From the IMG/VR virus record IMGVR_UViG_3300011921_000007, positions 1-62,773 of that record: a stretch of 62,773 nt of DNA; one strand, 5' to 3'. Positions 21,531 to 45,938 of this stretch are shown here, piece by piece. The translations under genes were made by a program, and so were the position numbers. The notes under the pieces were generated by a model. It ran no database searches. It saw only the letters and a list, made by a program, of their open reading frames with translations, and had not been told where the DNA came from. Source of the DNA: a virus. Its lineage: Duplodnaviria; Caudoviricetes. Numbering within the stretch: the first letter of the stretch is position 1; each line of letters begins with the position of its first letter.

Positions 21531-22223
21531 ATGGCTTCGCAGAGAATACAACTATATGATTTGCTTGAAGGAGTGGTTCCATACGAACCCCATTTAATAC
21601 GTACACCAATGCGTACTGAGGACTTAATGCCAGAACAAATCGTAAGTGCCGCTGCCAAAACAGCGAAAGATATACTCCGTAGGAGTGGTGCGCCCGACAT
21701 AGAGGTCACCGATGAGGATGCAGCCAATGCTGAAACAGCGTTCCAAGCCTATGTGGACGGGAATAAATCCGCCCTAACCCATACAAAACTGCAAAAACCC
21801 GAATCCATTATCAAATTAGAAGCGCTAGTATCGGAATACGACTGGCGAGTCATCCAGCATACGGACCAAATTCGTATGATAGTCACGAACAAACTGCTAA
21901 ACCTGTCCGATAACAAGGACCCGAAGGTACAACTCAAGGCTGTGGAGCTGCTAGGCAAGCTGGCAGACGTAGGAATGTTCGTTGAGAAGCAAGAAATCAC
22001 ATATAAGCAACGTACTGACGACGAAATCGACGCGGCACTGAACGAAAAACTGGGAATGCTGATAGAAGGAAGCTTTACTTCAGCTGCCGAAACCGCCCCA
22101 GTACCATTAGTGAACGCTACTAAACCTAAAACCGTGGACATACTAGTCCAAACTGACCCACTTGCTGTGTCACCACTGCCGTCCATGCCTAAAATTGACA
22201 TCGGAGCGCTATTAGGTGAGTAG
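21531..22223 (+). CDS. Probable terminase small subunit
   Basis: Immediately upstream of and overlapping TerL; LKAVELLGK...GMF helix. Confidence 0.65.
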   Translation: MASQRIQLYDLLEGVVPYEPHLIRTPMRTEDLMPEQIVSAAAKTAKDILRRSGAPDIEVTDEDAANAETAFQAYVDGNKSALTHTKLQKPESIIKLEALVSEYDWRVIQHTDQIRMIVTNKLLNLSDNKDPKVQLKAVELLGKLADVGMFVEKQEITYKQRTDDEIDAALNEKLGMLIEGSFTSAAETAPVPLVNATKPKTVDILVQTDPLAVSPLPSMPKIDIGALLGE

Positions 22224-23760
22224 CCTGAAGGAATATATTGCCACCTTGCCGATTGAGCAGGGTATAAATGTCTTGACAAACCTGAAAAAGATGCCTGAAA
22301 GGGAACAGCAGGAGTTTTTAGACCTTATTGAAGAGAAAATGAGTCGTATAAAACGAAATGCGGCTCAAGGCGGACTGCTTGACTTCGTAAAAGCGGTGTA
22401 TCCGAACTACATGGTGGGTGCTCACCACAAAAGACTGGCTAAATTACTGGAGGAGGCGATTGATGGTGATAAAAAACGTATTATTGTTAACATTGCTCCT
22501 CGTATGGGTAAGTCTGAGCTTGTGTCTTATCTGTTCCCTGCTTGGTTTTTGGGACACCACCCAGATAAAAAGATTATTATGGCCACGCATACCGCTGACT
22601 TGTCTACTACTTTCGGTCGTAGGGTGCGAGATTTGGTTGGTAGTAAAGAGTATCGAGGTGTATTCCCAAATGTATCCCTAAATCAGGATGCAAAAGCGGC
22701 CGGGCAGTGGAACACTAGCGACGGCGGTCAGTATTATGCGGCTGGTGTGGGCGGTGCGTTGGCTGGTCGTGGTGCCGATGTGTTTGTGATTGATGACCCG
22801 CACTCAGAACAGGAAGCGAAAACAGGTAACCCGTCGGTGTTCTTATCCGCATGGGAGTGGTTCCAGTCAGGCCCGTTACAACGGTTGATGCCTAATGGGG
22901 TTATTATAGTGGTGATGACACGCTGGTCGATGATGGACCTGACAGGTCAGTTGGTTAACCACATGATAAAGAACCCGGATGCCGACCAGTGGGAGGTCGT
23001 TGAGTTTCCAGCCATACTAGATGAAGGTACCGATGATGAAAGGTCGCTATGGCCAGAGTTCTGGCCCCTTGAAGAGCTCAAGAAGAAACGCGCTGGTATG
23101 GATACACGGTACTGGTCGAGTCAGTATTTGCAGAATCCAACTGCAGAAGGAGCGCAACTCATTAAGAAAGAGTGGTGGTCGCACTGGGAGGGAGAGTCGC
23201 CACCGGTATGTGAATATACGATTATGTCTTTGGACGCGGCTCAGGAGTCTCACAACAGGGCTGACTATAATGCAGTTACACTCTGGGGCATATTTTTTAA
23301 TGAAGAGACCAATCAGAATAATATAATCCTGCTCAATGCGTGGAAAGAGCGGATGGAGTTCCCTGAACTCAAACGACGCATGATTGCCGAATACAAGGAA
23401 TGGGAACCTGATACGTTCTTGGTGGAGAAGAAGTCTAACGGCGCAGCGCTATACCAAGAGCTACGGTCCATGGGCATGCCTGTTTCGGAGTACACCCCGG
23501 TAAAAGATAAAGTGTCAAGGGTTAACTCGGTCACAGACTTGTTTGCATCAGGGATGGTGTGGGCACCGACAGACAGACGTTGGGCGAATGAGGTGATAAC
23601 AGAATGTGCCGAATTCCCAGTAGGTACACACGATGACTTTGTGGATAGCTGCACACAGGCGTTAATCCGATTTAGAAAAGGTGGCTTTATTAAGTTACCT
23701 AGCGACGAAGCTGATGATGATGTATTATATCGGTATCAACGTAAAGCAGCCTATTACTAA
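22216..23760 (+). CDS. terL: Terminase large subunit
   Basis: APRMGKS Walker A, GRGAD..IDDP Walker B, VMTRW, nuclease D...HDDFVD. Confidence 0.95.
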   Translation: MSSLKEYIATLPIEQGINVLTNLKKMPEREQQEFLDLIEEKMSRIKRNAAQGGLLDFVKAVYPNYMVGAHHKRLAKLLEEAIDGDKKRIIVNIAPRMGKSELVSYLFPAWFLGHHPDKKIIMATHTADLSTTFGRRVRDLVGSKEYRGVFPNVSLNQDAKAAGQWNTSDGGQYYAAGVGGALAGRGADVFVIDDPHSEQEAKTGNPSVFLSAWEWFQSGPLQRLMPNGVIIVVMTRWSMMDLTGQLVNHMIKNPDADQWEVVEFPAILDEGTDDERSLWPEFWPLEELKKKRAGMDTRYWSSQYLQNPTAEGAQLIKKEWWSHWEGESPPVCEYTIMSLDAAQESHNRADYNAVTLWGIFFNEETNQNNIILLNAWKERMEFPELKRRMIAEYKEWEPDTFLVEKKSNGAALYQELRSMGMPVSEYTPVKDKVSRVNSVTDLFASGMVWAPTDRRWANEVITECAEFPVGTHDDFVDSCTQALIRFRKGGFIKLPSDEADDDVLYRYQRKAAYY

Positions 23761-23769: not shown

Positions 23770-26262
23770 ATGGCCATTGAAAAGAGTTTATACGCAGCCC
23801 CGCAAGGGATTATCCCAGATGATGATACCATCGAACCGATTGAGATAGAAATAGAAGACCCTGAATCCGTTGCGATTCATATGGGTGACCTTGATATCCT
23901 GTTGGAGCCTGAAGACCCAATGGACGATGAGTTCAATGATAACCTAGCTGAATACATAAGTGAAGGTGCATTGGCAGAATTGGCCTCCGATTTGATTTCG
24001 GACTTCGATGATGACATCAGCTCGCGTAAAGACTGGATGCAAACCTACGTAGATGGCCTAGAGCTGCTAGGTATGAAGATTGAAGAGCGTACAGAACCGT
24101 GGGACGGTGCCTGTGGCGTTTACCACCCATTGCTGTCAGAAGCCTTAGTTAAGTTCCAAGCAGAGACCATGATGTCTATGTTCCCAGGTGCGGGTCCAGT
24201 TAAGACACAAATCATCGGTAAGGAAACACAGGATAAGAAAGAAGCAGCAGCACGCGTCCAAGACGATATGAACTATCAATTGATGGATGTGATGCAGGAG
24301 TACCGCCCAGAGCACGAACGCATGCTGTGGGGCCTAGGATTGAGCGGTAACGCCTTTAAGAAGGTGTACTTTGACCCGCACTTAGACCGTCAGGTATCCA
24401 TATTCGTCCCAGCTGAAGACATGGTAGTACCATACGGTGCGTCAAACCTTGAGTCAGCAGAGCGCGTTACCCATGTAATGCGTAAGACAGAGAATGAACT
24501 ACGCCGCTTGCAAGTGGCCGGCTTCTACTTAGACGTGGACTTAGGTACACCAGCTAACACCCTTGATGAGGTGGAGAAGAAGATTGCTGAGAAGATGGGC
24601 TTCCGTGCGTCAACGGATGACCGCTATAAGCTATTGGAGATGCACGTTGACTTAGACTTGCCGGGGTATGAGGACAAGGATGAGGGCGGCAACCTTACAG
24701 GCGTAGCCTTACCATACGTAGTAACCTTGGAAAAAGGCAGCACAACCATATTGGCTATCCGCCGCAACTGGGACCCAAACGATGAAACCAAACAAAAACG
24801 CCAGCACTTCGTCCATTACGGTTATGTTCCGGGTTTCGGCTTTTATTATTTTGGGCTTATTCATCTGGTCGGTGCTTTTGCTAAGTCGGGTACTTCTCTT
24901 ATTCGTCAACTTGTTGATGCGGGTACGCTCAGCAATCTACCGGGTGGTTTTAAAACTCGCGGCCTTCGTGTCAAGGGTGATGACACACCGATAGCTCCAG
25001 GTGAGTTCCGTGATGTGGATGTACCAAGCGGTGCGTTAAAAGACAACATCATGCCATTGCCATACAAAGAGCCGTCACAAGTTCTTATGTCATTGCTTGG
25101 CCAAATCGTTGATGAAGGCCGTCGCTTCGCTAATACTGCTGACCTACAAATCAGTGACATGTCTGCGAACAGCCCAGTTGGCACTACACTGGCAATCCTT
25201 GAGCGTACATTGAAGGTGATGAGTGCTGTACAGGCTCGTATCCACTATTCAATGAAACAAGAGTTAGGCTTATTAAAAGGCATCATTGCTGCCTATACGC
25301 CAGAAGAGTATAACTACGACCCTGTAGAAGGTGACCGTAGGGCTAAGAAATCAGACTACGATAACGTTACAGTTATCCCTGTATCAGACCCTAATGCCTC
25401 CACAATGGCGCAGAAGATTGTGCAATATCAAGCAGTTATGCAACTTGCGCAACAATCACCACAGATATATAACATGCCTTTACTACACCGTCAGATGTTA
25501 GAAGTGTTAGGTATTAAGGAAGCCGCTAAGTTAGTGCCGATGGACGATGACCAGAAGCCGACTGACCCAGTGACTGAGAACCAAAACATCCTGATGATGA
25601 AACCAGTAAAAGCCTTCATCATGCAAGACCATCAAGCGCATATCACCGTGCACATGGCTGCTATGCAAGACCCTAAAATCCAACAAATGCTTCAAGGTAA
25701 CCCAGCGGCACAACAGATGCAGGCTGCGATGATGGCTCACATCAACGAGCACATGGGCTTTGAATACCGTAAACAGATGGAGATGCAGTTGGGTATGGCC
25801 TTACCACCTCAGAAAGATGAGATGGGTGATGATGTTCACATGGACCCAGAAATGGAAGCGCAGTTGGCTCCTATGTTGGCTCAAGCGGCTCAACAACTAT
25901 TGCAGTCTAACCAAGCGCAAGTTGCACAACAGCAAGCGGCGCAGCAACAACAAGACCCAATGATTCAGATGCAGCAGCAAGAGCTACAGTTGAAAACAGC
26001 GGAGCAAGCACGTAAAGAGAAGAAAGACCAAACTGATGCTGTATTCAAAGCAGAGCAATTGAAAATTGAAGCTGCACGTGTACTAGGTCAGCAAGAGACA
26101 ACCAAAGGCCAACAAAAGAACGACCTACTTAAAACCGTTGCTCAGCTACAAGCGACTAAGCAACAACATGCAATTGACAAGGGCGTTGACGTGATGAAAC
26201 AAATATCACAACAACAGTTCCAATCGAAGCAACAAACCAATAAACCGACAAAAGGTGAATAA
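23770..26262 (+). CDS. Portal protein (P22-like, Gln-rich C-terminal barrel)
   Basis: 830 aa directly after TerL; HPLLSEA..FQA, G..FKKVY, long Q-rich helix. Confidence 0.88.
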   Translation: MAIEKSLYAAPQGIIPDDDTIEPIEIEIEDPESVAIHMGDLDILLEPEDPMDDEFNDNLAEYISEGALAELASDLISDFDDDISSRKDWMQTYVDGLELLGMKIEERTEPWDGACGVYHPLLSEALVKFQAETMMSMFPGAGPVKTQIIGKETQDKKEAAARVQDDMNYQLMDVMQEYRPEHERMLWGLGLSGNAFKKVYFDPHLDRQVSIFVPAEDMVVPYGASNLESAERVTHVMRKTENELRRLQVAGFYLDVDLGTPANTLDEVEKKIAEKMGFRASTDDRYKLLEMHVDLDLPGYEDKDEGGNLTGVALPYVVTLEKGSTTILAIRRNWDPNDETKQKRQHFVHYGYVPGFGFYYFGLIHLVGAFAKSGTSLIRQLVDAGTLSNLPGGFKTRGLRVKGDDTPIAPGEFRDVDVPSGALKDNIMPLPYKEPSQVLMSLLGQIVDEGRRFANTADLQISDMSANSPVGTTLAILERTLKVMSAVQARIHYSMKQELGLLKGIIAAYTPEEYNYDPVEGDRRAKKSDYDNVTVIPVSDPNASTMAQKIVQYQAVMQLAQQSPQIYNMPLLHRQMLEVLGIKEAAKLVPMDDDQKPTDPVTENQNILMMKPVKAFIMQDHQAHITVHMAAMQDPKIQQMLQGNPAAQQMQAAMMAHINEHMGFEYRKQMEMQLGMALPPQKDEMGDDVHMDPEMEAQLAPMLAQAAQQLLQSNQAQVAQQQAAQQQQDPMIQMQQQELQLKTAEQARKEKKDQTDAVFKAEQLKIEAARVLGQQETTKGQQKNDLLKTVAQLQATKQQHAIDKGVDVMKQISQQQFQSKQQTNKPTKGE

Positions 26263-26264: not shown

Positions 26265-26462
26265 ATGGATTCAAACTTATTTGATGTTCTTCTTAAAGAG
26301 TACAGGGACCGTATGGCCATGCTTACAGATGCAATGGCACGCGGTAGTTGCGCTTCATTTGAGGAATACAAGTACACAAGCGGTCAGTTACGAGGACTTG
26401 AAGCCGCCTGTTCCATAATTACAGACCTCAAAAAACGATTGGAAAACGCAGATGACGAGTAA
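26265..26462 (+). CDS. Small head-module protein
   Basis: EEYKY..GQLRGL pattern between portal and GroES. Confidence 0.7.
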   Translation: MDSNLFDVLLKEYRDRMAMLTDAMARGSCASFEEYKYTSGQLRGLEAACSIITDLKKRLENADDE

Positions 26463-26910
26463 CATAAATTTAGCTCAAGCACTAGATTTATCAAAACTGG
26501 CCGAAAACGCCAAAAAAGAAGCACAAGAAGAAGCAGAAATACGAGCAATCGTAGGTGACGCAACAGATGTAGAAAAGGCAGCTCAAGTGCCACGACCCTC
26601 AGGCTACCATATCCTATGCGCTATTCCGGCAAAAGATAAGGAATACGACAGCGGGATTGTTAAAGCAGATGAGACACTTAGAATGGAAGAAGCATTGACC
26701 ACAGTATTATTCGTGGTTGCTTTAGGCCCAGATTGCTATAAGGATGAAAAACGATTCCCTAGCGGTCCGTGGTGTAAAGAAGGCGACTTTGTTTTGGTGC
26801 GCCCACACTCTGGTAGTAGGTTGGTAATTCACGGTCGTGAATTCCGTTTAATCAATGATGATACTGTTGAAGCCGTTGTAGACGAGCCACGCGGTATTAT
26901 TCGCAAATAA
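26452..26910 (+). CDS. groES: GroES-like co-chaperonin
   Basis: P.GYHIL...SGIV...VVALGPD...WCKEGDFV...RLINDD.V.AVV. Confidence 0.85.
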   Translation: MTSNINLAQALDLSKLAENAKKEAQEEAEIRAIVGDATDVEKAAQVPRPSGYHILCAIPAKDKEYDSGIVKADETLRMEEALTTVLFVVALGPDCYKDEKRFPSGPWCKEGDFVLVRPHSGSRLVIHGREFRLINDDTVEAVVDEPRGIIRK

Positions 26911-27872: not shown

Positions 27873-28322
27873 ATGACCGATACAAGAATCACTCGTAATA
27901 TAGATACTCGCGCAGTAACAGAACGTCCTAAACAGTGGCAGCAACCCGAACTATTGCCAGAGCCCGATAAGCAAGAAGGTTATTCTTATCGCTGGATTCG
28001 AGTCGCTACGTTAAACGCTGCGGACCCACGCAACTTATCTGCCAAGCTCAGAGAAGGTTGGGAAGCCGTTAAGCTAGAAGAACAACCACAGTTAGCAGTA
28101 TTGGCCGACCCCGATAGTCGTTACAAAGACAACATCGAAATCGGTGGATTATTACTATGCAAGACTCCAAGTGAGTTTGTACAACAACGAAATGAGCATT
28201 TCGACAACTTGTCCAAATCACAAACCGAGTCTGTAGATAATAACATAATGCGTCAAAGCGATGCCCGTATGCCTATGTTCTCTGAGCGTAAGTCAACGAC
28301 ATCATTTGGCAAAGGTAATTAA
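27873..28322 (+). CDS. Head-module protein
   Basis: GYSYRWIR...EGWE...GGLLLCK. Confidence 0.7.
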   Translation: MTDTRITRNIDTRAVTERPKQWQQPELLPEPDKQEGYSYRWIRVATLNAADPRNLSAKLREGWEAVKLEEQPQLAVLADPDSRYKDNIEIGGLLLCKTPSEFVQQRNEHFDNLSKSQTESVDNNIMRQSDARMPMFSERKSTTSFGKGN

Positions 28323-28350
28323 TTTAATTTAATTTTATTAGGAGTAATCT

Positions 28351-28941
28351 ATGGCTTATCCAACCGTATCCGCTCCCTATGGCTTTAAACCGATTAACCG
28401 TTTAGATGGCTTACCATACGCAGGTGCTGTTCGTCAGTACCCTGTAACATCAGGTCAAGCAATCTACAATGGTCAACCAGTTCAATTAGTTATAGGCGGC
28501 ACAGTATCAGCAGACGCTGATTTAACACAAGGCGCTATTCTTGGCGTTGCAGTGGGTGTTCAATACACAAACTCATCTGGTCAAACAGTACAAGCGCAAT
28601 ACGCACCAGCTTCAGGCGTAACTAACGTTATCGCTTATGTTGTTGATGACCCATTTGCGTTATACAAAGTGGCTCTTACAGGTAACAACTCAACCATTAC
28701 AGCTGCAGGCAAAAACATCGTCGGCACAAACGTAACAGGTATCGTTGGTACTCCTGATGCAAATACTGGTAACGCGACTTCATCTATATTTGGTGGTTCA
28801 GCTGCTGTTACAGCAACTTTCCCATTCCGTGTAGTAAGCGTAGTTCCAGAGACAGCGACAGGTGCAGATGCATTCGTAGAGTGTATTGTTAAACTTAACT
28901 TGTCACAACTTCTATCAACCACTGGCTTAGCTGCCGCTTAA
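28351..28941 (+). CDS. Capsid decoration/cement protein
   Basis: APYGFKP start, beta-rich, precedes MCP. Confidence 0.65.
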   Translation: MAYPTVSAPYGFKPINRLDGLPYAGAVRQYPVTSGQAIYNGQPVQLVIGGTVSADADLTQGAILGVAVGVQYTNSSGQTVQAQYAPASGVTNVIAYVVDDPFALYKVALTGNNSTITAAGKNIVGTNVTGIVGTPDANTGNATSSIFGGSAAVTATFPFRVVSVVPETATGADAFVECIVKLNLSQLLSTTGLAAA

Positions 28942-28956
28942 TTAAGGAGATAATAT

Positions 28957-29865
28957 ATGGCTATTTCACGCGCACAGCTCCTTAAAGAGCTACTACCAGG
29001 TCTTAATGCATTATTCGGTTTAGAGTATGCACGATATGGTGAAGAACACACTGAAATCTACGAAACAGAGACTTCAGAGCGTTCATTCGAAGAAGAAACA
29101 AAATTGTCTGGCTTCTCAGCTGCACCTGTTAAAAACGAGGGCTCTGCCATCGCTTACGACAATGCTCAAGAGGCATGGACTGCTCGATACAACCACGAAA
29201 CAATCGCTTATGGCTTCAGCTTAACTGAAGAAGCTATCGAAGATAACTTGTATGACTCATTGTCTGCTCGTTATACTAAAGCATTGGCTCGTGCTATGGC
29301 TTACACGAAACAAGTGAAAGCTGCAGCTGTATTGAACAACGGCTTTAACGCTTCATACGTAGGTGGTGACGGTACTTCATTGTTCTCAACTACCCACAAC
29401 TTAGTGTCTGGTGGCACCAACAGTAACCGCCCAGCAGTTGCAGCGGACTTGAACGAAACTTCATTGGAAAATGCAGTTATTCAAATCGCAGCTTGGACTG
29501 ACGAACGTGGTCTATTGATTGCAGCTAAACCTAAGAAACTTATCGTTCCACCAGCATTGCAATTCGTTGCAACACGTTTGTTGGAAACTAAGTTACGCGT
29601 AGGTACTGCTGACAATGACATCAACGCCATTGAAAACAACGGTTCAATCCCAGAAGGTTACACAATTAACCACTTCTTGACCGACAACAATGCTTGGTTC
29701 TTGACTACAGACGTGCCAAACGGTATGAAACACTTTGTTCGTACGCCATTGCAAAATAGCATGGACGGTGATTTCGATACAGGTAACGTACGTTACAAAT
29801 CTCGTGAGCGTTATAGCTTCGGTTATTCTGACCCACTAGGTATGTACGGTTCTCCAGGCGCTTAA
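28957..29865 (+). CDS. Major capsid protein
   Basis: MAISRAQLLKELLPGLNALFG...K.EG.AI.YD...RERYSFG.SD; strong codon bias; followed by terminator. Confidence 0.9.
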   Translation: MAISRAQLLKELLPGLNALFGLEYARYGEEHTEIYETETSERSFEEETKLSGFSAAPVKNEGSAIAYDNAQEAWTARYNHETIAYGFSLTEEAIEDNLYDSLSARYTKALARAMAYTKQVKAAAVLNNGFNASYVGGDGTSLFSTTHNLVSGGTNSNRPAVAADLNETSLENAVIQIAAWTDERGLLIAAKPKKLIVPPALQFVATRLLETKLRVGTADNDINAIENNGSIPEGYTINHFLTDNNAWFLTTDVPNGMKHFVRTPLQNSMDGDFDTGNVRYKSRERYSFGYSDPLGMYGSPGA

Positions 29866-29887
29866 TTTGGCTTGGTAGTGTTATCCC

Positions 29888-29941
29888 CCTGATGGTTTCG
29901 ACTGTCAGGTGCAAGGGCCCTTCGGGGCCCTTTGCTTTTTT
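29888..29941 (+). terminator. Tandem UUCG hairpins, second one an intrinsic terminator
   Basis: CCTGATGGT-TTCG-ACTGTCAGG then AAGGGCCC-TTCG-GGGCCCTT-TGCTTTTTT. Confidence 0.85.
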
Positions 29942-29955
29942 AATGGTTTTCCGTA

Positions 29956-29983
29956 TTGCAACGTGTTTATAAAAGCGCAGAAT
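29956..29983 (+). promoter_or_regulatory. Putative pqqA promoter
   Basis: TTGCAA-16 nt-CAGAAT followed by hairpin TGTGCACA-TCGA-TGTGTACA (29991-30010). Confidence 0.45.
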
Positions 29984-30035
29984 GTGTACATGTGCACATC
30001 GATGTGTACACTCAATCGACTTAAGGAGATATACT

Positions 30036-30107
30036 ATGTGGACAACACCAGCAGCTACTGAAATGCGTTTTGGCTTTGAAGTTACTATGTACGTAATGAA
30101 TAAATAA
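30036..30107 (+). CDS. pqqA: Coenzyme PQQ precursor peptide PqqA (23 aa)
   Basis: MWTTPAATEMRFGFEVTMYVMNK with ExxxY; RBS TAAGGAG; below ORF-track size cutoff. Confidence 0.95.
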   Translation: MWTTPAATEMRFGFEVTMYVMNK

Positions 30108-30226
30108 GGTATAATAAATGTAATACGCACAACACCTCTGCGAAAGTACGTGTTGTCTATTATACCCCGCACGCCTATGCCGCCCTCATTCATCCGAGCA
30201 AGCGCCACGCGCAACCTTGCGGGGTT

Positions 30227-30598
30227 TTATTTTTCTGTGAGTTGACCTGACTTAAGTTGCCGTTCTTCGTGGTGATGTTTACGATGGCAGTTGGCGCATA
30301 GGACTATGCATTTGGCTTCTATTTCTTCACGGGCTATTTTATAAGCTCCGTTCTGTACTAATTCACTTATCTTTCTGTTGGCTGGGTCGGGTACTACGTG
30401 GTGGAAGTCTAATGCTGATGGGTGGTTTTCACCACAGTTGGCGCAAGCAAGTGTTGCTTTAAATGCTTCCCATTGAATGCGTTTCTTTATCTTTCCTAAT
30501 CGAACACGCTCAATCTGTGCGGGCTTGTTGCCTTCATAATGTTTCTTCGAATATAACTTTGCTTTTGCCTTGCGAACTGCGGGGTCTTTGTATGGCAT
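30227..30598 (-). CDS. HNH endonuclease, antisense in structural arm
   Basis: MPYKD..., CANCG...LDFHH...KCIVLCANCHR; start moved to ATG 30598. Confidence 0.85.
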   Translation of the reverse strand: MPYKDPAVRKAKAKLYSKKHYEGNKPAQIERVRLGKIKKRIQWEAFKATLACANCGENHPSALDFHHVVPDPANRKISELVQNGAYKIAREEIEAKCIVLCANCHRKHHHEERQLKSGQLTEK

Positions 30599-30616
30599 AG
30601 TTAACCTAATAAAACA

Positions 30617-30645
30617 TTGACATACGAACAATAACATAGTATAAA
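30617..30645 (+). promoter_or_regulatory. Sigma70-type promoter
   Basis: TTGACA-17 nt-TATAAA. Confidence 0.75.
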
Positions 30646-30656
30646 TCAGTTATCAA

Positions 30657-30729
30657 CCGGGAAAAATCCGGCCTACTAGACTGTCCCGGCAGACGCATAC
30701 AAGACTATTAGGCTTTACTTTGTATGGAG
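30657..30729 (+). ncRNA. Candidate pseudoknotted 5' leader RNA
   Basis: Three interleaved helices: CCGGGA/TCCCGG, GCCTA-c-TAG/CTA-t-TAGGC, CATACAA/TTGTATG (last touches GGAG). Confidence 0.55.
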
Positions 30730-30737
30730 ATATTCAC

Positions 30738-31193
30738 ATGGCTAACACCACATTCAGCGGCCCAATACGTGCCGGTAACATCGCTAACACAACAGGTACC
30801 ACATTAGGTACTAACGTTGCCAACATCGGCCAAGTAGTAATGGCACAATCATCACCAATCACACAAGCTTCAGCTGCAACAACTATCGTAATCCCAGCAA
30901 ACAGCCAAATCGTTGAAATCAACGTATGGGTTTCAGCTGTATGGTCAGGCGTAGCAACTACATTTGGTGTAGGTACAACAGTATTGGCTACTAGATTCAC
31001 AGCCGCAGGTGCAGTTGATGGCGCAGCAATTGGTGTGTTGTCAGTTACTCCAGGTACAGATGCTACACGTACAGGCGCTTTCATTGATGTAGGTACTACA
31101 GACGTTAAGATTGCTGTTACTTCTACAAACACAGGTACAGGCGCTGGTGTAATCACCGTTCGTTACGTTCAAGCTAATAACTTAACTGCTTAA
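30738..31193 (+). CDS. Virion structural protein (minor capsid-like)
   Basis: MANTTFSGPIRAG...IPANSQI; start moved to ATG 30738 (GGAG). Confidence 0.75.
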   Translation: MANTTFSGPIRAGNIANTTGTTLGTNVANIGQVVMAQSSPITQASAATTIVIPANSQIVEINVWVSAVWSGVATTFGVGTTVLATRFTAAGAVDGAAIGVLSVTPGTDATRTGAFIDVGTTDVKIAVTSTNTGTGAGVITVRYVQANNLTA

Positions 31194-31201
31194 TTAATCT
31201 A

Positions 31202-31221
31202 GGGGCTTCGGCCCCGCTTTC
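31202..31221 (+). terminator. Short UUCG hairpin / weak terminator
   Basis: GGGGC-TTCG-GCCCC-GCTTT. Confidence 0.55.
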
Positions 31222-31239
31222 AATCTAAGGAGATTAATT

Positions 31240-31716
31240 ATGGCAATGCAATATGATGTAAAATCAAAACATGCTTCCTCAAGCGGCCTTATGGTTAATG
31301 GTAGGACTAGAGTAAAGGGCGCAGTAGTATTTCCTTTTACTGGTGCAACAGGGTACATTGCGTTTGTAGATAACGTAAGCATCACAGGCACATACGCAAG
31401 GTCAACGACAACTGCTACCATCACAGCTGTAAATCATGGATTATCGGTTGGCGACTGGACCTATTTAGACTGGGACTTAACTGATAACCCATACCAAGTC
31501 CAAACAGTTGCGGATGCAAATACATTTACAGTAACGGTTGCAAATAGTGGCGGAACTAGCGGAGCAGTTGTTGTTTACAACGACGTTCTGTTACAAGCCG
31601 ACGCATCTGACCCTATCCCATACAATATTGTTGTTCCAGGTGAAGGTATTCTTGCGCATGTCGGTATTAGAGTGTTTCTTCCCGCTAATATGCATACAAC
31701 ACTATTCTACGGCTAA
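31240..31716 (+). CDS. Virion protein with inserted beta-sandwich
   Basis: MQYDVKS...PGEGIL...FYG frame interrupted by TITAVNHGLSVGD...NTFTVT module. Confidence 0.7.
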   Translation: MAMQYDVKSKHASSSGLMVNGRTRVKGAVVFPFTGATGYIAFVDNVSITGTYARSTTTATITAVNHGLSVGDWTYLDWDLTDNPYQVQTVADANTFTVTVANSGGTSGAVVVYNDVLLQADASDPIPYNIVVPGEGILAHVGIRVFLPANMHTTLFYG

Positions 31717-31724
31717 GGTGACCT

Positions 31725-31952
31725 ATGAGCGTAGAACGAGAGCTAGCGGTGCATGAAACTGAGATTAAACATCTACAAGCTGATATGGATAAGCTGGTCC
31801 AGGACATGGAATCAGTTAAAACAATGCTTAACGATATTAACACAACCCTTGCGGAAGCTCGTGGGGGCTGGAGAGTCTTAATGATGGTGGGGGGTGCCGG
31901 TGGAGCTCTTGGCGCTGTAGTTACTCAATTTGCACATAAAGTATTTGGATAG
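31725..31952 (+). CDS. Coiled-coil + TM protein (holin/XhlA-like)
   Basis: LAVHE coiled coil, GGW and C-terminal hydrophobic helix. Confidence 0.6.
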   Translation: MSVERELAVHETEIKHLQADMDKLVQDMESVKTMLNDINTTLAEARGGWRVLMMVGGAGGALGAVVTQFAHKVFG

Positions 31953-31960
31953 GAGCTAAC

Positions 31961-32089
31961 ATGATAGTAAACGAAAATGGACAGGGTGGCAAAAAAGAGC
32001 CTAAGAAAGAAACTAAAGAAGTAAAAGCAAAAGAAGACAAACAGTCTTTCTTCTCTGTGAAAGCTAAGAAAAATGCCGAGCAAGAGTAA
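31961..32089 (+). CDS. Small Lys/Glu-rich peptide (42 aa)
   Basis: Not in track; AGGAG RBS; MIVNENGQGGKKEPKKETK... Confidence 0.5.
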   Translation: MIVNENGQGGKKEPKKETKEVKAKEDKQSFFSVKAKKNAEQE

Positions 32090-32456
32090 ACCACAAGCAA
32101 AACTAATGGCAGCTGCGGCGCATAATCCTAAATTCGCTAAGAAGGTAGGTATCCCCACTAAAGTAGCCAAAGAGTTTAATGATGCTGACAAGGGCAAGAC
32201 TTTTAAAAAAGGCGGTGTATCATTAGCCGTTGGTCGTGGTGAGAAACTAGCTACCGATAAAGGTGCTGGACTTACAGCCAAAGGTCGTGCAAAGTATAAC
32301 GCAGCAACAGGGTCTAACTTAAAAGCCCCTCAGCCAGAAGGTGGCCCACGTAAGAAATCGTTTTGTGCCCGTATGTCAGGTATGCCAGGCCCAATGAAAG
32401 ACGAGAATGGCAAACCTACTCGTAAAGCAGCGTCATTAAGACGTTGGAAATGTTAA
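32073..32456 (+). CDS. Basic protein (DUF6321-like C-terminus)
   Basis: MPSKSKPQAKLMAAAAHNP + FKKGG + KSFCARM...SLRRWKC. Confidence 0.7.
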   Translation: MPSKSKPQAKLMAAAAHNPKFAKKVGIPTKVAKEFNDADKGKTFKKGGVSLAVGRGEKLATDKGAGLTAKGRAKYNAATGSNLKAPQPEGGPRKKSFCARMSGMPGPMKDENGKPTRKAASLRRWKC

Positions 32457-32469
32457 TAAAGGAATCATT

Positions 32470-32685
32470 ATGAAACACGAAGACATTAAGATGGACAAAA
32501 AGATGGCTAAAAAAGCTATCGGCATGCATGAGTCACAACTACACGGTGGTAAAAAGTCAGACCTAACTAAACTTAAATCTGGCGGTTCAGCTTCAGCCCG
32601 TGCAGATGGTTGTGCTACTAAAGGTAAGACAAAAGGTAAGATGATTGCCATGTGTGGTGGCGGTATGTATAAAAAGGGTAAATAA
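32470..32685 (+). CDS. Small basic protein
   Basis: LKSGGSASARADGCATKGKTKGKMI. Confidence 0.7.
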   Translation: MKHEDIKMDKKMAKKAIGMHESQLHGGKKSDLTKLKSGGSASARADGCATKGKTKGKMIAMCGGGMYKKGK

Positions 32686-32687
32686 TT

Positions 32688-32960
32688 ATGGCTAAGAAAA
32701 TAGAAGCATGGGAAGCAGAAGTAGACAACGGGTCTGCAACACCAACACCCCCAAAAAAATCTGCACCTCCGCCACCCCCTCCAGCTCCAAAGGCTAAGGT
32801 TAAACCTAAACAAAAAACATATCCTATTGGGCAAACTGAAGACGACATGAGCATTAACATGAAAAGCGGCGGTTGCGCTAAGATGTCTAAAGGTGGTTCA
32901 GCTTCTAGTCGTGCTGATGGTTGCGCTCAACGTGGTAAAACACGCGGTAAGATGGTGTAA
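32688..32960 (+). CDS. Small basic Pro-rich protein
   Basis: MSKGGSASSRADGCAQRGKTRGKMV, paralogous tail to 32470. Confidence 0.7.
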   Translation: MAKKIEAWEAEVDNGSATPTPPKKSAPPPPPPAPKAKVKPKQKTYPIGQTEDDMSINMKSGGCAKMSKGGSASSRADGCAQRGKTRGKMV

Positions 32961-32962
32961 TC

Positions 32963-33262
32963 ATGAGACCGTCTCGTGGTATGGGTGATATAGCCCCAAG
33001 CAAAATGCCTAAGAAAAAGATTATCACCCGCAAGGATGACCCTAATAAGGTTGAGCTGTTTAAAGAGGGTGGTAAAGTGGGCCTTCCTGCGAGTAAAAAT
33101 GTCAACGCTGCTGGTAACTACACAAAGCCTGAACTAAGGAAGCGTATAGTATCGCAAGTTAAGTCAGCTGCAACACACGGTACAGGCGCAGGTCAATGGT
33201 CAGCTCGTAAGGCACAGCTAGTAGCTAAGAAGTATAAAGCCGCAGGTGGTGGTTATAAGTGA
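32963..33262 (+). CDS. Basic protein (DUF5872-like)
   Basis: MRPSRGMG...FKEGG...NYTKPELR...GQWSARKAQ...GGGY. Confidence 0.7.
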   Translation: MRPSRGMGDIAPSKMPKKKIITRKDDPNKVELFKEGGKVGLPASKNVNAAGNYTKPELRKRIVSQVKSAATHGTGAGQWSARKAQLVAKKYKAAGGGYK

Positions 33263-33510
33263 GTGCGTTAGCTAAAAGCCAAAAGTCTTTAAAAGCTTGG
33301 GGCGACCAGAAATGGACAACCAAGTCCGGTAAGAAATCATCTGAAACAGGTGAGCGTTACTTGCCAGAGAAAGCAATAAAGGCATTGACCCCTGCAGAGT
33401 ATGCAGCGACAACCAAAGCGAAGCGTAAAGGCAAAGCAAGCGGCAAGCAGTTCGTAGCCCAGCCTGATAAGATTAAAAGCAAAGTTAAGCCATATAGGAA
33501 GGTAACATAA
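33259..33510 (+). CDS. Basic protein
   Basis: SQKSLKAW.DQKW.T...ERYLP; overlapping junctions. Confidence 0.7.
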   Translation: MSALAKSQKSLKAWGDQKWTTKSGKKSSETGERYLPEKAIKALTPAEYAATTKAKRKGKASGKQFVAQPDKIKSKVKPYRKVT

Positions 33511-33632
33511 TGCATCTGTTCAGTGTTGGAATGATATGCGGGTTCGCAATAGGTGTCCAATACGAACTAATCGAAAACGATAATTATGTTATTATAAGTT
33601 TAGGCATAATTGACATAGTAATTATTTGGTAA
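33510..33632 (+). CDS. Small hydrophobic peptide (40 aa)
   Basis: Not in track; TAATG coupling, ends 6 nt before next gene. Confidence 0.45.
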   Translation: MHLFSVGMICGFAIGVQYELIENDNYVIISLGIIDIVIIW

Positions 33633-33638
33633 AAACAT

Positions 33639-34568
33639 ATGGCAACCACCGGTGTATCATCATTCAATTTAGACTTAAATGACCTCATAGAAGAGGCATT
33701 TGAGCGTTGTGGTAAAGAGCTTCGTACTGGTTACGACTTCCGCACCGCCCGTCGTAGCATCAACTTGATGACTATTGAGTGGGCCAACCGCGGCATCAAC
33801 CTATGGACTATTGAGCAGGGTCAAATCCCAATCAACATAAACGGCGGTCAGATTAGCTATCCATTGCCTATTGACACCATTGACTTGTTGGATACTGTTA
33901 TTCGTACTGGCTCAGCGCAAAACCAAACCGATATCAACATCAACCGCATATCCGAGACTACATACAGCACGATACCAAACAAGAATGCCACAGGCCGTCC
34001 TATTCAGGTGTGGATAGACCGTCAGTCAGGCAATGTAAATACGTCAGCTACAACCACACTGTCAGCCGCTATATCGGCAACAGACACAACCATTAACGTG
34101 GTAAATGCGGATAACTTAGCTACTCAAGGGTACATTAACATTGATTCAGAAACTATCCTGTATCAGAACGTGAGCGGTAACCAACTACTAAACTGCTACC
34201 GTGGACAAAACGGTACTACTGCAGCATCACATATAATCAGTTCAAGCGTAACGGTTACTAGACTACCTAACGTAAACATCTGGCCTACAGGCGTTTCCGG
34301 TACACAGTACACTCTTATCTACTACCGCCTACGTCGTTTAAACAATGCAGGCGACGGTGTTAACACACAGGACATTCCATTCCGCTTTATACCGTGTATG
34401 GTGGCTGGCTTAGCTTACTACCTGTCAATCAAACTTGAAGGGGTCCCATTAGACCGTATCATGGGTTTAAAAGCCGATTACGCTGAGCAGTTTGATTTAG
34501 CGGCACAAGAGGACCGTGAGAAAGCATCAATTCGTTTCGTGCCCCGCAACATGTCTTATACGAGGTAG
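33639..34568 (+). CDS. Head-tail adaptor protein with inserted domain
   Basis: IEEAFERCG...ARRS.NL...W.NRG.NLW...P.RF.PC..AGLAYY. Confidence 0.75.
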   Translation: MATTGVSSFNLDLNDLIEEAFERCGKELRTGYDFRTARRSINLMTIEWANRGINLWTIEQGQIPININGGQISYPLPIDTIDLLDTVIRTGSAQNQTDININRISETTYSTIPNKNATGRPIQVWIDRQSGNVNTSATTTLSAAISATDTTINVVNADNLATQGYINIDSETILYQNVSGNQLLNCYRGQNGTTAASHIISSSVTVTRLPNVNIWPTGVSGTQYTLIYYRLRRLNNAGDGVNTQDIPFRFIPCMVAGLAYYLSIKLEGVPLDRIMGLKADYAEQFDLAAQEDREKASIRFVPRNMSYTR

Positions 34569-34569
34569 T

Positions 34570-35097
34570 ATGAAGGTAATCGGAAGAAGCGAAGCTATGA
34601 AAATAGCGCTGACTCATTACTATACTGGGAAGCCATGTACACATGGGCATTTAGCTACCCGCAGGGTTAACGACAGGGTATGTATGGATTGCGATAAGGC
34701 AACCAAAAGAAGGGCGGCTATTGAAAACGCTGAGCACTCCAAAGCAAAAAAACAAGCTTCATACGAACGAAACAAGCACCACATCCTTGCGCAAAAACGG
34801 GTGTACAGACAAAATAATAAAGGGCTAGTAAACGCTTTAGTGGCGGGCCGTAAGAAACATATTAAAGTAGCTACACCTAAATGGGTTGATTCAGAAGAGC
34901 TATGGTTAATTAAAGAAGCGTATGCACTAGCTGCACTTAGAACAAAGCAGTTTGGGTTTAGCTGGCACGTGGACCATATAATACCTTTACAAGGCAAGTT
35001 AGTTAGCGGGTTACATGTAATTAGCAACATGCGAGTGATACCTGGAATAACCAACATTCAAAAAAAGAATCGATATGAGGTAGAATATGCCTACTAA
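34570..35097 (+). CDS. HNH homing endonuclease
   Basis: YYTGKPC.HGH...CMDC; ATPKW; HVDHIIPL.G..VSGLHV..N...N..K.N; start moved to ATG 34570. Confidence 0.88.
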   Translation: MKVIGRSEAMKIALTHYYTGKPCTHGHLATRRVNDRVCMDCDKATKRRAAIENAEHSKAKKQASYERNKHHILAQKRVYRQNNKGLVNALVAGRKKHIKVATPKWVDSEELWLIKEAYALAALRTKQFGFSWHVDHIIPLQGKLVSGLHVISNMRVIPGITNIQKKNRYEVEYAY

Positions 35098-35476
35098 GTT
35101 TGCTAGCGGAAAGCATGCCATAGCGGAATGCGATGTTTGTGGGGAGCGATACAAACTAAAAGAATTAAAAAGACTGGTCATCAAGACGAAAACAGTGAAC
35201 ATATTGGCTTGCCCAGAGTGTTGGAACCCAGACCAGCCACAGCTTCATTTGGGTATGTACCCAGTGAATGACCCACAAGCAATCAGAGACCCACGACCTG
35301 ATACAAGTTATTATGCTTCAGGCTTAAGTGCTGACGGGTCAGTGTCAGAAGGTAGTCGTATATTTCAATGGGGTTGGAACCCTGTTGGAGGTGCAAGTAG
35401 TTTCGATACCCCGCTAACACCAAATGATTTGATTGCAGTGGGACAAGTAGGTATAGTGACGGTAACAACAACTTAA
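35087..35476 (+). CDS. CxxC zinc-binding tail-module protein
   Basis: ASGK.A...CDVCG...CPECW..DQPQ...DPQA..PRPD. Confidence 0.7.
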   Translation: MPTKFASGKHAIAECDVCGERYKLKELKRLVIKTKTVNILACPECWNPDQPQLHLGMYPVNDPQAIRDPRPDTSYYASGLSADGSVSEGSRIFQWGWNPVGGASSFDTPLTPNDLIAVGQVGIVTVTTT

Positions 35477-35488
35477 AGGAGTTTTAAA

Positions 35489-35668
35489 ATGGCTTATAAA
35501 TCAGGCGCCGATGGCGTAACAAAAAAAGGTAAAACAAAAGGCAAGAACTTAGGTGATTCAGGCCCTACCGTAGGTAAACAAGCAGGCGGTAAAAAATCAA
35601 GCGGTGTTACATCCGAGGCAATGAAAGCAATGGGTCGTAACTTAGCTCGCGTTAAAAATCAAGGATAA
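35489..35668 (+). CDS. Small basic protein (59 aa)
   Basis: Not in track; AAGGAG RBS; MAYKSGADGVTKKGKTKGKNLG... Confidence 0.7.
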   Translation: MAYKSGADGVTKKGKTKGKNLGDSGPTVGKQAGGKKSSGVTSEAMKAMGRNLARVKNQG

Positions 35669-35672
35669 CATC

Positions 35673-36020
35673 ATGGCTAAAAATGATTTTGTAAAAGAAA
35701 CACCAGCAGATTCATACCCGTTAGGTCATGCTCGTGAGAACAAAGATGCTAGTGCATACACTGGCTTTAAATACCCATCAGGCGGTGGTAACGATATCGG
35801 TGTATACAAGCAACCAATGAGCAATACTAACACCGCAGACATCGCGTTTAAACCCAACCCAAATACGCTTAAAGGCGTAGATGTGAACCCAACTACTGCA
35901 GCTATGTCTGTAAGCGTTGGTGATAGCGGTGCTAAACGAGTTAATCCATATGGCGCTGGCGAAATGCGTGGTTATGGTGCAGCTACTAAAGGCCGTAAAA
36001 TTAGCGGAAAAATGGGCTAA
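35673..36020 (+). CDS. Small virion-associated protein
   Basis: C-terminal MRGYGAATKGRK. Confidence 0.65.
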   Translation: MAKNDFVKETPADSYPLGHARENKDASAYTGFKYPSGGGNDIGVYKQPMSNTNTADIAFKPNPNTLKGVDVNPTTAAMSVSVGDSGAKRVNPYGAGEMRGYGAATKGRKISGKMG

Positions 36021-36937
36021 TGAACTACATAGAGCTTAGTCAAGCAATCCAATCATACTCGGAAAACACGGAGTCTCTGTTCGTGGAGAACATTCCTACG
36101 TTCGTGCAAGAAGCGGAAAGACGTATATTTAACACCGTTCAACTACCCTCACTACGTAAAAACGTAACAGGTACAATGACATTGGGTAATAAATACGTCG
36201 CGCTTCCTAATGATTGGCTAGCTAACTTTTCTCTAGCTGTTATTGATGCAGCAGGTGCTTATAGTTACCTTTTAAATAAAGACGTTAACTTTATTCGTGA
36301 AGCGTATCCTAATCCTACATCAACCGGACAACCTAAGTATTACGCAGTGTTTGGCCCTCGTATAGATGATGCAAACGAGCTATCGTTAATTCTTGGCCCT
36401 TCCCCTGACTTTGCTTATGGTATGGAGTTGCATTACTTTTACTATCCAGTATCTATAGTTCAAAGTGTTATAACCTCGTTGGGTACAATTACAGGTGGGT
36501 CTGGGTATGTGAATGGCACTTACTTTAATGTTCCACTAACAGGCGGTTCAGGTACTTCTGCGTATGGTACAATTACGATATCAGGTGGCGCAGTTACTGC
36601 AGTTACAATAGTAACTGGGGGGTCATTTTATGTTATTGGCGATGTACTAACTACTGCTAACACAAACATTGGTGGGACAGGCACTGGGTTTTCAGTTCCA
36701 GTAACTAACGTAGCAAACACCGCAGGCACTAGCTGGTTAGGTGATAACTATGACCCTGTGTTGTTTTATGGTGCTATGAGGGAAGCAGTCATTTTTATGA
36801 AAGGTGAACAGGATATGGTCACTTATTATGAGAAGATGTTCCAAGATGCTTTAGGTCAATTGAAACGCCTAGGTGATGGTTTAGAACGCGGTGATGCATA
36901 CCGTGACGGGCAAACAAAACTTAAAGTAAATACTTAA
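36020..36937 (+). CDS. Tail adaptor/tubular protein with inserted Gly/Thr-rich domain
   Basis: MNY.EL...F...AE.RI...G.PKYY...P.PD..Y...SWL.DN...YG...EA..FMKG. Confidence 0.75.
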   Translation: MNYIELSQAIQSYSENTESLFVENIPTFVQEAERRIFNTVQLPSLRKNVTGTMTLGNKYVALPNDWLANFSLAVIDAAGAYSYLLNKDVNFIREAYPNPTSTGQPKYYAVFGPRIDDANELSLILGPSPDFAYGMELHYFYYPVSIVQSVITSLGTITGGSGYVNGTYFNVPLTGGSGTSAYGTITISGGAVTAVTIVTGGSFYVIGDVLTTANTNIGGTGTGFSVPVTNVANTAGTSWLGDNYDPVLFYGAMREAVIFMKGEQDMVTYYEKMFQDALGQLKRLGDGLERGDAYRDGQTKLKVNT

Positions 36938-36951
36938 TTTAGGAGTAAGAC

Positions 36952-37386
36952 ATGGCAATTTCACAGGCAATGTGCACAAGCTTTAAAGTTCAGTTATTGA
37001 GCGGCGCACAAAATTTTAATACAGGTACAACAAAGGTTTATAAAATTGCTTTGTATACCTCAGCAGCGACATTAGGCGCGAGCACTACAAACTACAGTTC
37101 TACTACAAACGAAGTGGCTTCAGGTGGTGGATACACAACAGGCGGTAATACGCTTACAGTATCACAAGTGCCAACTTCATCAGGCACTACAGCGTTTATT
37201 GACTTTGCAGATACTACTTGGTCAAACGCAACTATTACAGCTCGTGGCGCGTTGATTTATAACAGTACTGATGACACTGCAGTTGCTGCATTAGATTTTG
37301 GTTCAGATAAGACATCAACTTCTGGTGATTTTACAATCATATTCCCAACAGCGAACGCAACAGACGCAATTATTCGTATAGCTTAG
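36952..37386 (+). CDS. Tail structural protein
   Basis: MAISQAMCTSFK...KIALYT...TARGALIYN...LDFG.DK...FP. Confidence 0.75.
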   Translation: MAISQAMCTSFKVQLLSGAQNFNTGTTKVYKIALYTSAATLGASTTNYSSTTNEVASGGGYTTGGNTLTVSQVPTSSGTTAFIDFADTTWSNATITARGALIYNSTDDTAVAALDFGSDKTSTSGDFTIIFPTANATDAIIRIA

Positions 37387-37400
37387 AATAGGAGTCACAA

Positions 37401-41669: not shown

Positions 41670-41686
41670 ATTAAAGGAAACACGAA

Positions 41687-41899
41687 ATGGCAAAAAATAA
41701 AGAGCCCCAAATCGTAACAGTAGATGGCGTAGAGTACGATGCTAATGATTTTACGGAAGAGCAAAGATTGCTATTTAATCACTGCGTGGATTTAGACCGT
41801 AAGATTGCAAGCACCAACTTTCAACTGCAACAACTTAATGTAGGTAAAGACTCATTTATTAAGTTACTTAAAACAGCGTTAGAACCTAAAGAGGAATAA
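41687..41899 (+). CDS. Small tail-associated protein
   Basis: VTVDGVEY...DLDRK; follows fibre. Confidence 0.65.
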   Translation: MAKNKEPQIVTVDGVEYDANDFTEEQRLLFNHCVDLDRKIASTNFQLQQLNVGKDSFIKLLKTALEPKEE

Positions 41900-41907
41900 T
41901 CACTTAG

Positions 41908-42672: not shown

Positions 42673-42818
42673 CAGACACAACAAACATTACACCAAATAA
42701 TGAAGATGCGGTAAAATGCGATAAAGAAGCACAAGCAAACGAGGCCCCAAAGCAAGAATCGCAAAGCGTTACAGTGACGGTTACTGGGTTTTCCTTGTTT
42801 GCTACTACACTAAAATAA
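42669..42818 (+). CDS. Hypothetical peptide (49 aa)
   Basis: Not in track; ATGA overlap with upstream gene. Confidence 0.4.
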   Translation: MTDTTNITPNNEDAVKCDKEAQANEAPKQESQSVTVTVTGFSLFATTLK

Positions 42819-42829
42819 AGGATTAAATC

Positions 42830-44569: not shown

Positions 44570-44570
44570 T

Positions 44571-45008: not shown

Positions 45009-45010
45009 TT

Positions 45011-45277
45011 ATGGAACCAGGCAAAATTATTCCAATGATATTCCCAGTATTGGTTGCAGCAGTTGGATGGATGATTTCAAGTGTTAATAGCATGCAAAAT
45101 GATTTGGTAGATATTCGCTCTAAAATGCCAGCTTTAATAACCGCGCAAGGTGTGCCTACGGATAGCCCGTTATCTGCCGAAGCTCGTAACAAGTTAAAAG
45201 AAGAATTAAACACCAAGATAGGCGAGCTTAATGTTCGCATCCGAATCCTAGAAGAACACGATAAGGACAGAAAATGA
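45011..45277 (+). CDS. Lysis-cassette membrane protein
   Basis: N-terminal TM and coiled coil. Confidence 0.55.
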   Translation: MEPGKIIPMIFPVLVAAVGWMISSVNSMQNDLVDIRSKMPALITAQGVPTDSPLSAEARNKLKEELNTKIGELNVRIRILEEHDKDRK

Positions 45278-45937: not shown

Positions 45938-45938
45938 T

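Follow-up and report, generated by a model that had tools for sequence, protein, structure and literature searches.

The gene pqqA behind the capsid gene of this tailed phage raises the question of what a virus could gain from encoding the peptide precursor of the cofactor PQQ while none of the enzymes that act on this peptide are found in its genome. In PQQ synthesis PqqD binds the PqqA leader, PqqE cross-links a Glu to a Tyr (Glu15 and Tyr19 in the present peptide), and proteases, PqqB and PqqC finish the cofactor. One PqqA is consumed per PQQ, and one PQQ is needed per new methanol dehydrogenase. The DNA analysed here, called the window in the following, is the entire virus record of 62,773 bases with an estimated completeness of 99%. 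In our judgement this pqqA is probably a host-derived moron or auxiliary gene for PqqA, carried by a tailed phage of ~63 kb, whose host is most likely a methylotroph of the Methylophilaceae.

The pqqA reading frame

The gene and its ribosome-binding site were located as follows:

30036..30107, + strand: pqqA (translation, TIGR02107, PF08042, six-frame profile search)
30023..30028, + strand: Shine-Dalgarno sequence AAGGAG, 7 nt before the ATG; homology to host pqqA starts about here (30019-30025)

The frame runs from ATG to TAA (23 codons plus TAA) and its translation is MWTTPAATEMRFGFEVTMYVMNK. The original prediction had given exactly this peptide, but for the range 29956..30107; the ORF starts at 30036, not at 29956, and that range takes in upstream DNA. 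The proposed identity as PqqA was confirmed by both curated models. A TIGR02107 search, which had been suggested as a check, was passed far above chance (NCBIfam, 38.8 bits against a cut-off of 20, E 5.6e-10), and Pfam PF08042 gave 40.3 bits with a cut-off of 21.1. The PqqA model scored 36.4 bits in a six-frame search of the record. The ribosome-binding site that had been postulated was also found, at the position listed above.

With 23 aa the peptide is within the ~20-40 aa of the family. It has the E-x3-Y motif (Glu15-Val-Thr-Met-Tyr19), whose Glu and Tyr are the two residues ending up in PQQ, and Trp2 and Pro5 of the W-x-x-P leader, by which PqqA is recognized by PqqD. A longer frame of 41 aa from the ATG at 29982 was rejected; it has no ribosome-binding site and is not conserved among related cassettes.

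The phage genome and the search for PQQ enzymes

The main virion genes upstream of pqqA are:

22216-23760: large terminase (PHROGs/Pfam)
23770-26262: portal (PHROGs/Pfam)
28957..29865, + strand: major capsid protein gene, the upstream neighbour of pqqA (phrog_371 major head protein; PF25209)

PHROGs and Pfam further identified a helicase, an exonuclease, a DNA polymerase, a primase-like protein, an M15 peptidase, a spanin and tail-fibre-like proteins. The capsid protein has at most 71% amino acid identity to that of any GenBank phage (Planktothrix phage Pag-Yong1, Synechococcus phage MinM2). No tRNA genes were found in the record, along which the G+C content ranges from 0.41 to 0.51.

When all 62,773 bases were searched in six frames for PqqB, PqqD and PqqE, no match with E up to 0.1 was obtained, and Pfam scans of 51 ORFs revealed no PQQ enzyme, in agreement with the predicted absence of pqqBCDE from the window. 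The search for PqqC, which is the weakest of the four because it gave no signal in any control genome either, also yielded no match in the whole record with E up to 0.1. Hence pqqA is the sole PQQ or methanol gene found in the ~63-kb genome, and it is not adjacent to pqqBCDE. Such adjacency is no requirement for the PqqA family: a host copy (L166) likewise stands alone, and in Methylophilaceae a single pqqBCDEFG set is accompanied by 3-12 copies of pqqA (PMC4109929).

Two other regions of the window were noted in passing. The ORF at 26452-26910, between the portal and scaffold-like genes, matched a phage GroES-like co-chaperonin family (phrog_3188, E 3e-9) and had no Pfam match. The adjacent small basic ORFs 32470-32685 and 32688-32960, which come after the gene of a DUF6321 protein (32073-32456), have a common C-terminal motif, GGSAS.RADGCA..GKT.GKM, and look like paralogous small virion or internal proteins.

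Host origin and host assignment

The region 29866-30240 was compared by BLAST with at least 125 genome loci that hold the core motif. Among the matches listed, homology to host loci was restricted to the ribosome-binding site and the ORF, from ~30019-30025 to 30107, with 88-95% nucleotide identity, and the best matches were labelled Methylotenera or Methylophilaceae. The sequence type had been regarded as characteristic of Methylophilaceae, and this is where it mainly occurs: 94 of the at least 125 genome loci listed carry the label of a Methylophilaceae or Methylophilales genus, 27 are assigned to a higher rank only, and 4, all of them metagenome bins, come from another family. The exact peptide of the window is the commonest variant among the matches listed, with at least 53 genome loci and at least 25 viral loci. 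The gene therefore has a close host homologue (up to 95% nucleotide identity), and with capsid and tail genes on its flanks it belongs to a genuine viral genome. Judged by the similarity to host loci, pqqA is host-derived.

A DNA search of window positions 30240-50000 against 301 genomes of the family found a related phage contig of 54,979 bases (G200:C13; capsid 90.7% and portal 74% identical, loci L339 and L340). This contig sits in a Methylophilaceae-family genome bin and is without pqqA; the bin has four pqqA copies on other contigs. Because bins can hold stray phage contigs, it lends the host assignment weak support. No CRISPR-like match to the 301 genomes was obtained with this part of the window, which is about one third of its length. 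Other short matches from this search were discarded, namely those of 31-32 nt, which reflect similarity to the tuf start region, and one of 41 nt, an alanine-rich repeat. Taking gene similarity and the one binned related contig together, the host is most likely a methylotroph of the Methylophilaceae.

The matches of 31-32 nt concern 35651-35681, the ribosome-binding site and start of ORF 35673-36020. Two Methylophilaceae-family genomes have DNA 94% identical to it, and in one of them (G075) the match is the start region of the EF-Tu gene (E ~2e-4 per genome). The stretch may mimic a strong host translation start, or the match may be due to chance.

The three host genomes checked contained 3, 6 and 5 pqqA copies. 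In two host bins (L174, L183) two pqqA genes were seen in tandem, 183 and 198 nt apart, and other host contigs had two within ~1 kb, some on opposite strands (L148/L149, L204/L205).

Occurrence in other phages and earlier reports

A DNA search of GenBank phages gave ten records representing six phage types: nine cultured Methylophilaceae phages (P19250A, MEP401, MEP402, Venkman, MEP301 and four Melnitz isolates) and one uncultured podovirus. In IMG/VR at least 120 contigs have the core motif. That the gene is easily overlooked, as the original prediction had it, is also true for annotators: in the six GenBank phage records examined the ORF is intact but annotated in none, there being either no feature or an antisense "hypothetical protein".

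Like the window, the cultured Methylophilaceae phages (P19250A, Venkman, MEP301, MEP401/402, Melnitz) have an ORF of 23-24 codons with its own ribosome-binding site. P19250A encodes the identical peptide, with 90.5% nucleotide identity over ~105 nt. The genomic positions differ. In Venkman and MEP301 pqqA is antisense among recombination genes and in Melnitz it is beside tRNA genes, whereas in the window it follows the capsid gene and has an HNH gene as its other neighbour.

Viral pqqA is already known, and the original prediction was right in citing a report from freshwater metagenomes. Coutinho et al. (2020) described PqqA in the Lake Baikal virus population VP_266 and proposed that it enhances methanol oxidation (PMC7678222). 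There, too, the virus that encodes the precursor peptide was assigned to Methylophilaceae; the representatives of VP_266 and VP_139 also encode methanol dehydrogenase, unlike this phage, and VP_139 has other metabolic genes as well, a comparison made by description (PMC7678222). Also by description, this phage, whose capsid protein is 64% identical to that of Pelagibacter phage HTVC023P, is set apart as a lineage other than that of VP_266. A 2026 paper places viral pqqA among phosphorus genes (PMC13188868). In the accessible text of the Melnitz paper PQQ is mentioned only as a medium supplement and no phage pqq gene is described (PMC9004378), and that of the MEP401 paper contains no PQQ term and no description of a phage pqq gene (PMC10580990). 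A full-text literature search, with most subscription journals outside its coverage, found no paper that describes pqqA across cultured methylophages. The only new element is thus the detail of the control region, which is presented below.

Insertion site and coding constraint

As predicted, pqqA is placed behind the capsid terminator, and a second gene follows it:

29913..29941, + strand: terminator of the capsid gene, a G+C-rich stem of 8 bp (29913-29932) with a T-run behind it (terminator scan; inverted repeat)
30227..30637, - strand: HNH endonuclease gene, convergent with pqqA and in the same ~790-nt insert (phrog_2255, phrog_3106)

For comparison the best 80 of at least 601 IMG/VR matches to the capsid gene were used, which are 87-95% identical; 72 of them have at least 400 nt downstream. 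When the flanks of these 72 close relatives were fetched, pqqA was found behind the capsid gene in two and was absent from the other 70. In relatives with an empty site (L255, L268, L269, L288, L316, L326) the capsid stop is ~100-125 nt from the homologue of gene 30720-31193. This phage has ~790 nt at that site (29867 to ~30655), consisting of the capsid terminator region, the pqqA unit and the HNH gene. The HNH gene is absent from the empty-site relatives, in two relatives (L312, L327) there is an HNH homologue but no pqqA, and HNH homologues adjoin pqqA in L041, L076, L088 and L253. These comparisons show that the space behind the capsid gene, up to the gene that follows, is an insertion hot spot, which is either empty or occupied by the HNH gene only or by pqqA and the HNH gene. 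The HNH gene may help pqqA to move. A phage moron is an extra transcription unit inserted between conserved genes; pqqA, present or absent at one site among close relatives, is accessory here.

Start, stop and the E-x3-Y motif were intact in seven of seven sequences, i. e. the window and six GenBank phage copies found by DNA similarity. Pooled, and with the Melnitz copy aligned without its extra codon, these sequences gave pS 0.537, pN 0.098 and a pN/pS of 0.18; the differences at codon positions 1, 2 and 3 numbered 50, 55 and 155. Between the pqqA genes of the window and P19250A there are four synonymous and no non-synonymous changes. Among the 72 columns of the cassette family 13 are variable, 11 of them third positions and 2 in codon 4 (ratio 0.046), a count which takes one contig twice (L088, L253) and in which part of the constraint signal is forced, as the core 11 codons of pattern-found loci are fixed by the search. 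Phage pqqA is intact and under peptide-level constraint. The constraint could also have acted in the hosts ahead of each capture.

These data bear on the possibility that pqqA is a neutral passenger, a tiny host gene brought into a capsid-side recombination hot spot, perhaps with an HNH homing endonuclease, and of no benefit to the phage. The changing content of the site and the presence of pqqA in just 2 of 72 close relatives would fit this well. Yet the gene turns up repeatedly, in six phage types that are cultured or in GenBank and on at least 120 viral contigs, and its genetic surroundings are of several unrelated kinds; start, stop and motif are intact and pN/pS is low, and a phage-type promoter spacing is common to unrelated phages (see next section). 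We consider a mere passenger unlikely.

Putative promoter region and palindrome

Upstream of host pqqA genes (loci L128-L252, genomes G001-G003) a palindrome was found, T[CA]ATGA-N3-TCAT[GT]A. To our knowledge it has not been described. As the control we used DNA that flanks the respective loci at a distance of 400-1800 nt from pqqA (193 kb host, 198 kb viral). The counts, all among the matches listed, were:

Host upstreams, 0 mismatches: site in 47 of 117; control 0 in 193 kb
Host upstreams, at most 1 mismatch: site in 67 of 117; control 3 in 193 kb
Host upstreams, at most 2 mismatches: site in 91 of 117; control 43 in 193 kb
Viral upstreams, 0 mismatches: site in 1 of 118; control 0 in 198 kb
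Viral upstreams, at most 1 mismatch: site in 17 of 118; control 4 in 198 kb
Viral upstreams, at most 2 mismatches: site in 54 of 118; control 68 in 198 kb (~8 expected for equal length)

The distance from the palindrome to the next -10-like hexamer was then compared, counted from the first base of the palindrome; a hexamer was accepted with at least five of six matches to TATAAT and with A2 and T6 present. Among the matches listed, the host box was at offset 60 or 61 in 25 of 66 cases. The viral box was at 37 or 38 in 17 of 46 (14 at 37 and 3 at 38) and at 60-62 in 8 of 46. The phage copies of the palindrome are degenerate, and their distance to the -10 box is 23 nt shorter than that of the host copies.

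In the window the corresponding elements are:

29941..29955, no strand: degenerate operator-like palindrome TAATGGTTTTCCGTA, 3 mismatches to T[CA]ATGA-N3-TCAT[GT]A, position as in other viral cassettes
29956..29961, + strand: weak -35-like hexamer TTGCAA, 16-nt spacer to CAGAAT, below the threshold of the sigma-70 scan
29978..29983, + strand: -10-like hexamer CAGAAT (A2 and T6 kept), nAnAAT in related cassettes

By itself TAATGGTTTTCCGTA is not significant, as the window has 93 such sites (~0.06 per 40 nt); a better copy is at the equivalent position in 46 other viral cassettes among the matches listed. The offset of CAGAAT is exactly 37, the modal viral spacing. TTGCAA, where the originally predicted range starts, is probably the promoter that was meant there. 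On the + strand near pqqA the sigma-70 scan gave no promoter. The putative promoter therefore derives from comparison with other cassettes and not from detection, and to this extent the idea that pqqA has a promoter of its own is backed.

The orphan chromosomal pqqA of Methylophilaceae (L166) is closely comparable. This gene likewise stands alone and possesses a control region, a 5' hairpin and a terminator of its own. Orphan host genes have the same peptide and the same kind of upstream palindrome, which in the window is degenerate, and their -10-like box is 60/61 nt from the palindrome, whereas in the phages including the window it is 37/38 nt away.

Three host genomes contain 11 perfect palindromes, of which 6 were located 113-136 nt upstream of pqqA and 4 inside ORFs; the remaining one was intergenic with no obvious gene. 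No wider palindrome regulon emerged from these 11 sites. Two forms of the host palindrome were observed, TCATGA-N3-TCATGA and CTAATGA-N3-TCATTAG, often with a third half-site ~6 nt further on. The sequence ATGTGYACA was considered as a phage-wide promoter motif and dismissed: it has six matches in the window, four of them within 29982-30010, and 3 of 100 shuffles reach six. It is a local hairpin sequence and no dispersed motif.

The relation between operator-like sites in phage cassettes and those of host pqqA genes could also be read as a regulatory decoy. The cassette would then titrate a host factor that binds the palindrome, or the peptide would tie up PqqD or PqqE, so that PQQ synthesis would be altered rather than fed. 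However, the peptide is the commonest host substrate among the matches listed and its codons are constrained, which fits use as a substrate, and the window's own site is degenerate with its 3 mismatches. A decoy seems to us distinctly improbable, even more so than a passenger.

Hairpins, terminator and mobility of the unit

Three RNA structures are predicted around the ORF:

29992..30009, + strand: 5'-UTR stem-loop, GTGCAC, 6-nt loop, GTGTAC (RNAalifold on 9 distinct cassettes)
30120..30163, + strand: 3' hairpin downstream of pqqA (MFE fold; inverted repeats; conserved in L038)
30164..30235, + strand: terminator-like long hairpin CCCCGCA...TGCGGGG (30164-30225), then TTTTATTTTT (MFE fold; inverted repeat)

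A hairpin at the 5' end had been anticipated, and inverted repeats are indeed seen there, with the stem 29992-29997/30004-30009 kept in nine related cassettes. RNAalifold on these nine gave six pairs; for four of these, at least one sequence has both bases exchanged and the pairing preserved. The median fold z of the region from -62 to -13 was -1.24 for viral loci versus -0.38 for the control region, and -1.15 versus -0.05 for host loci; the 5' region of the window itself had a z of -1.7. Support for the 5' stem-loop is moderate.

On the 3' side the MFE fold of 30108-30240 has two hairpins (-35.6 kcal/mol, z -2.1). The second one, with the TTTTATTTTT that follows it, was missed by the terminator scan, which takes loops of 3-8 only; it gives the unit a predicted terminator of its own, as expected of a moron. 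The 3' part of the unit is common to L038 at 92.6% identity, and L088 has a shorter form. An Rfam search of 29800-30300 gave two chance-level matches only (E 0.18 and 0.97), far below the gathering scores, and no riboswitch.

Similarity to the window extends past the ORF in eight viral loci. In four of them (L084, L065, L050, L046) the segment ~29935-30107 is shared at 81-87% identity, the DNA further out is unrelated, and the fetched flanks match none of nine window proteins tested. In L046 and L050 the pqqA unit is antisense among NinB-type recombination, HNH and nucleotide-kinase genes. As the unit is shared while the outer DNA and the flanking proteins are unrelated, a unit of ~170 nt has moved between unrelated phages. 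Single-linkage clustering of the viral contexts was too coarse for a lineage count, since it chained 63 loci into one group.

This mobility, together with the 3-12 dispersed targets that a host would offer, might suggest a role at the DNA level, in which the shared 85-90 nt would serve as recombination homology with host pqqA loci or other phages in the manner of an attachment site. Against this, no integrase was found among 46 ORFs (PHROGs) or 51 ORFs (Pfam), the 88-95% identity to host copies among the matches listed includes no long exact core, and the changes are concentrated at third codon positions. We regard such a role as very improbable. That host pqqA reads were misjoined into a phage contig can practically be dismissed: environmental RNA contigs do contain pqqA-like sequence in great abundance, but pqqA is behind a capsid gene 76-97% identical to the present one in at least 13 other IMG/VR loci found by the motif pattern, so that the junction recurs in independent assemblies from other metagenomes (L038, L041/L274, L060, L088/L253 and others), and most of the stretch is present in runs from more than one study.

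Expression and proposed function

Contigs of four freshwater metatranscriptome runs (at most three samples from two studies) were compared with 28300-31300, and the bin of the ORF was covered. The RNA contigs over the pqqA ORF diverge from the window at 30024-30036 and 30106-30107, and in the four runs none was found over 29916-30016 or 30118-30622. Since they leave the window at the edges of the ORF, these contigs come from other pqqA loci and are uninformative on the phage copy. Contigs at least 90% like the pqqA ORF, with other flanks, were seen at 30017-30117 in all four runs (X15-X18); they had the largest summed depth of the stretch, summed contig depth being a poor measure of level.

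For the function of pqqA as an auxiliary gene the following course of events is proposed. Host RNA polymerase would transcribe pqqA from the weak promoter with the -10 hexamer CAGAAT (29978-29983); the -35 position of this promoter is directly preceded by the degenerate host-type palindrome. With its start near 29990, the transcript would begin with the 5' stem-loop, and translation would proceed from the strong ribosome-binding site. Since pqqB-E are missing from the phage, processing of the peptide would fall to the enzymes of the host. With one peptide used per PQQ and one PQQ per dehydrogenase, extra pqqA would sustain the cofactor supply, and hence the supply of methanol-derived energy and carbon, during infection.

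In Gluconobacter, overexpression of pqqA alone reportedly gave no rise in PQQ. A high demand for PQQ in the hosts is plausible. In an OM43 strain xoxF is the most transcribed gene (PMC5120137), and in a PQQ-overproducing methylotroph two pqqA copies were up ~3.5- and 4.3-fold (PMC9851590). Most close relatives are without pqqA, and so is the related contig G200:C13; any benefit would therefore be conditional.

Phage pqqA may be compared with psbA of cyanophages, a host energy-pathway gene in a phage which presumably keeps energy flowing during infection. The comparison concerns only how the two might work. With psbA a whole protein is replaced, whereas pqqA provides a substrate that host enzymes must still convert.

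A more far-reaching interpretation is that the phage pqqA genes are compact self-contained units, each made up of operator, -10 box, 5' stem-loop, ribosome-binding site, ORF and terminator, which plug into a dedicated host circuit with a phage-specific geometry and spread from phage to phage. The palindrome would then belong to an undescribed regulator that coordinates the 3-12 pqqA copies of Methylophilaceae. We put this forward tentatively, as a possibility that goes well beyond the auxiliary gene proposed above and is less likely to be right than not to be.

Implications for methylotrophs and their phages

Methylophilaceae (OM43, LD28, Methylotenera) rank among the major methanol consumers of lakes and coastal seas and depend on PQQ for their methanol dehydrogenase. 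The recurrence of pqqA in methylophages points to cofactor supply as a weak point in infection. The gene could be a handy marker for assigning uncultured phages to Methylophilaceae hosts. Since pqqA escapes both gene callers and annotators, it is undercounted when viral metabolic genes are surveyed. Finally, the palindrome shared by host and phage genes offers a testable handle on how the many host pqqA copies are controlled and on how phages may make use of this control.
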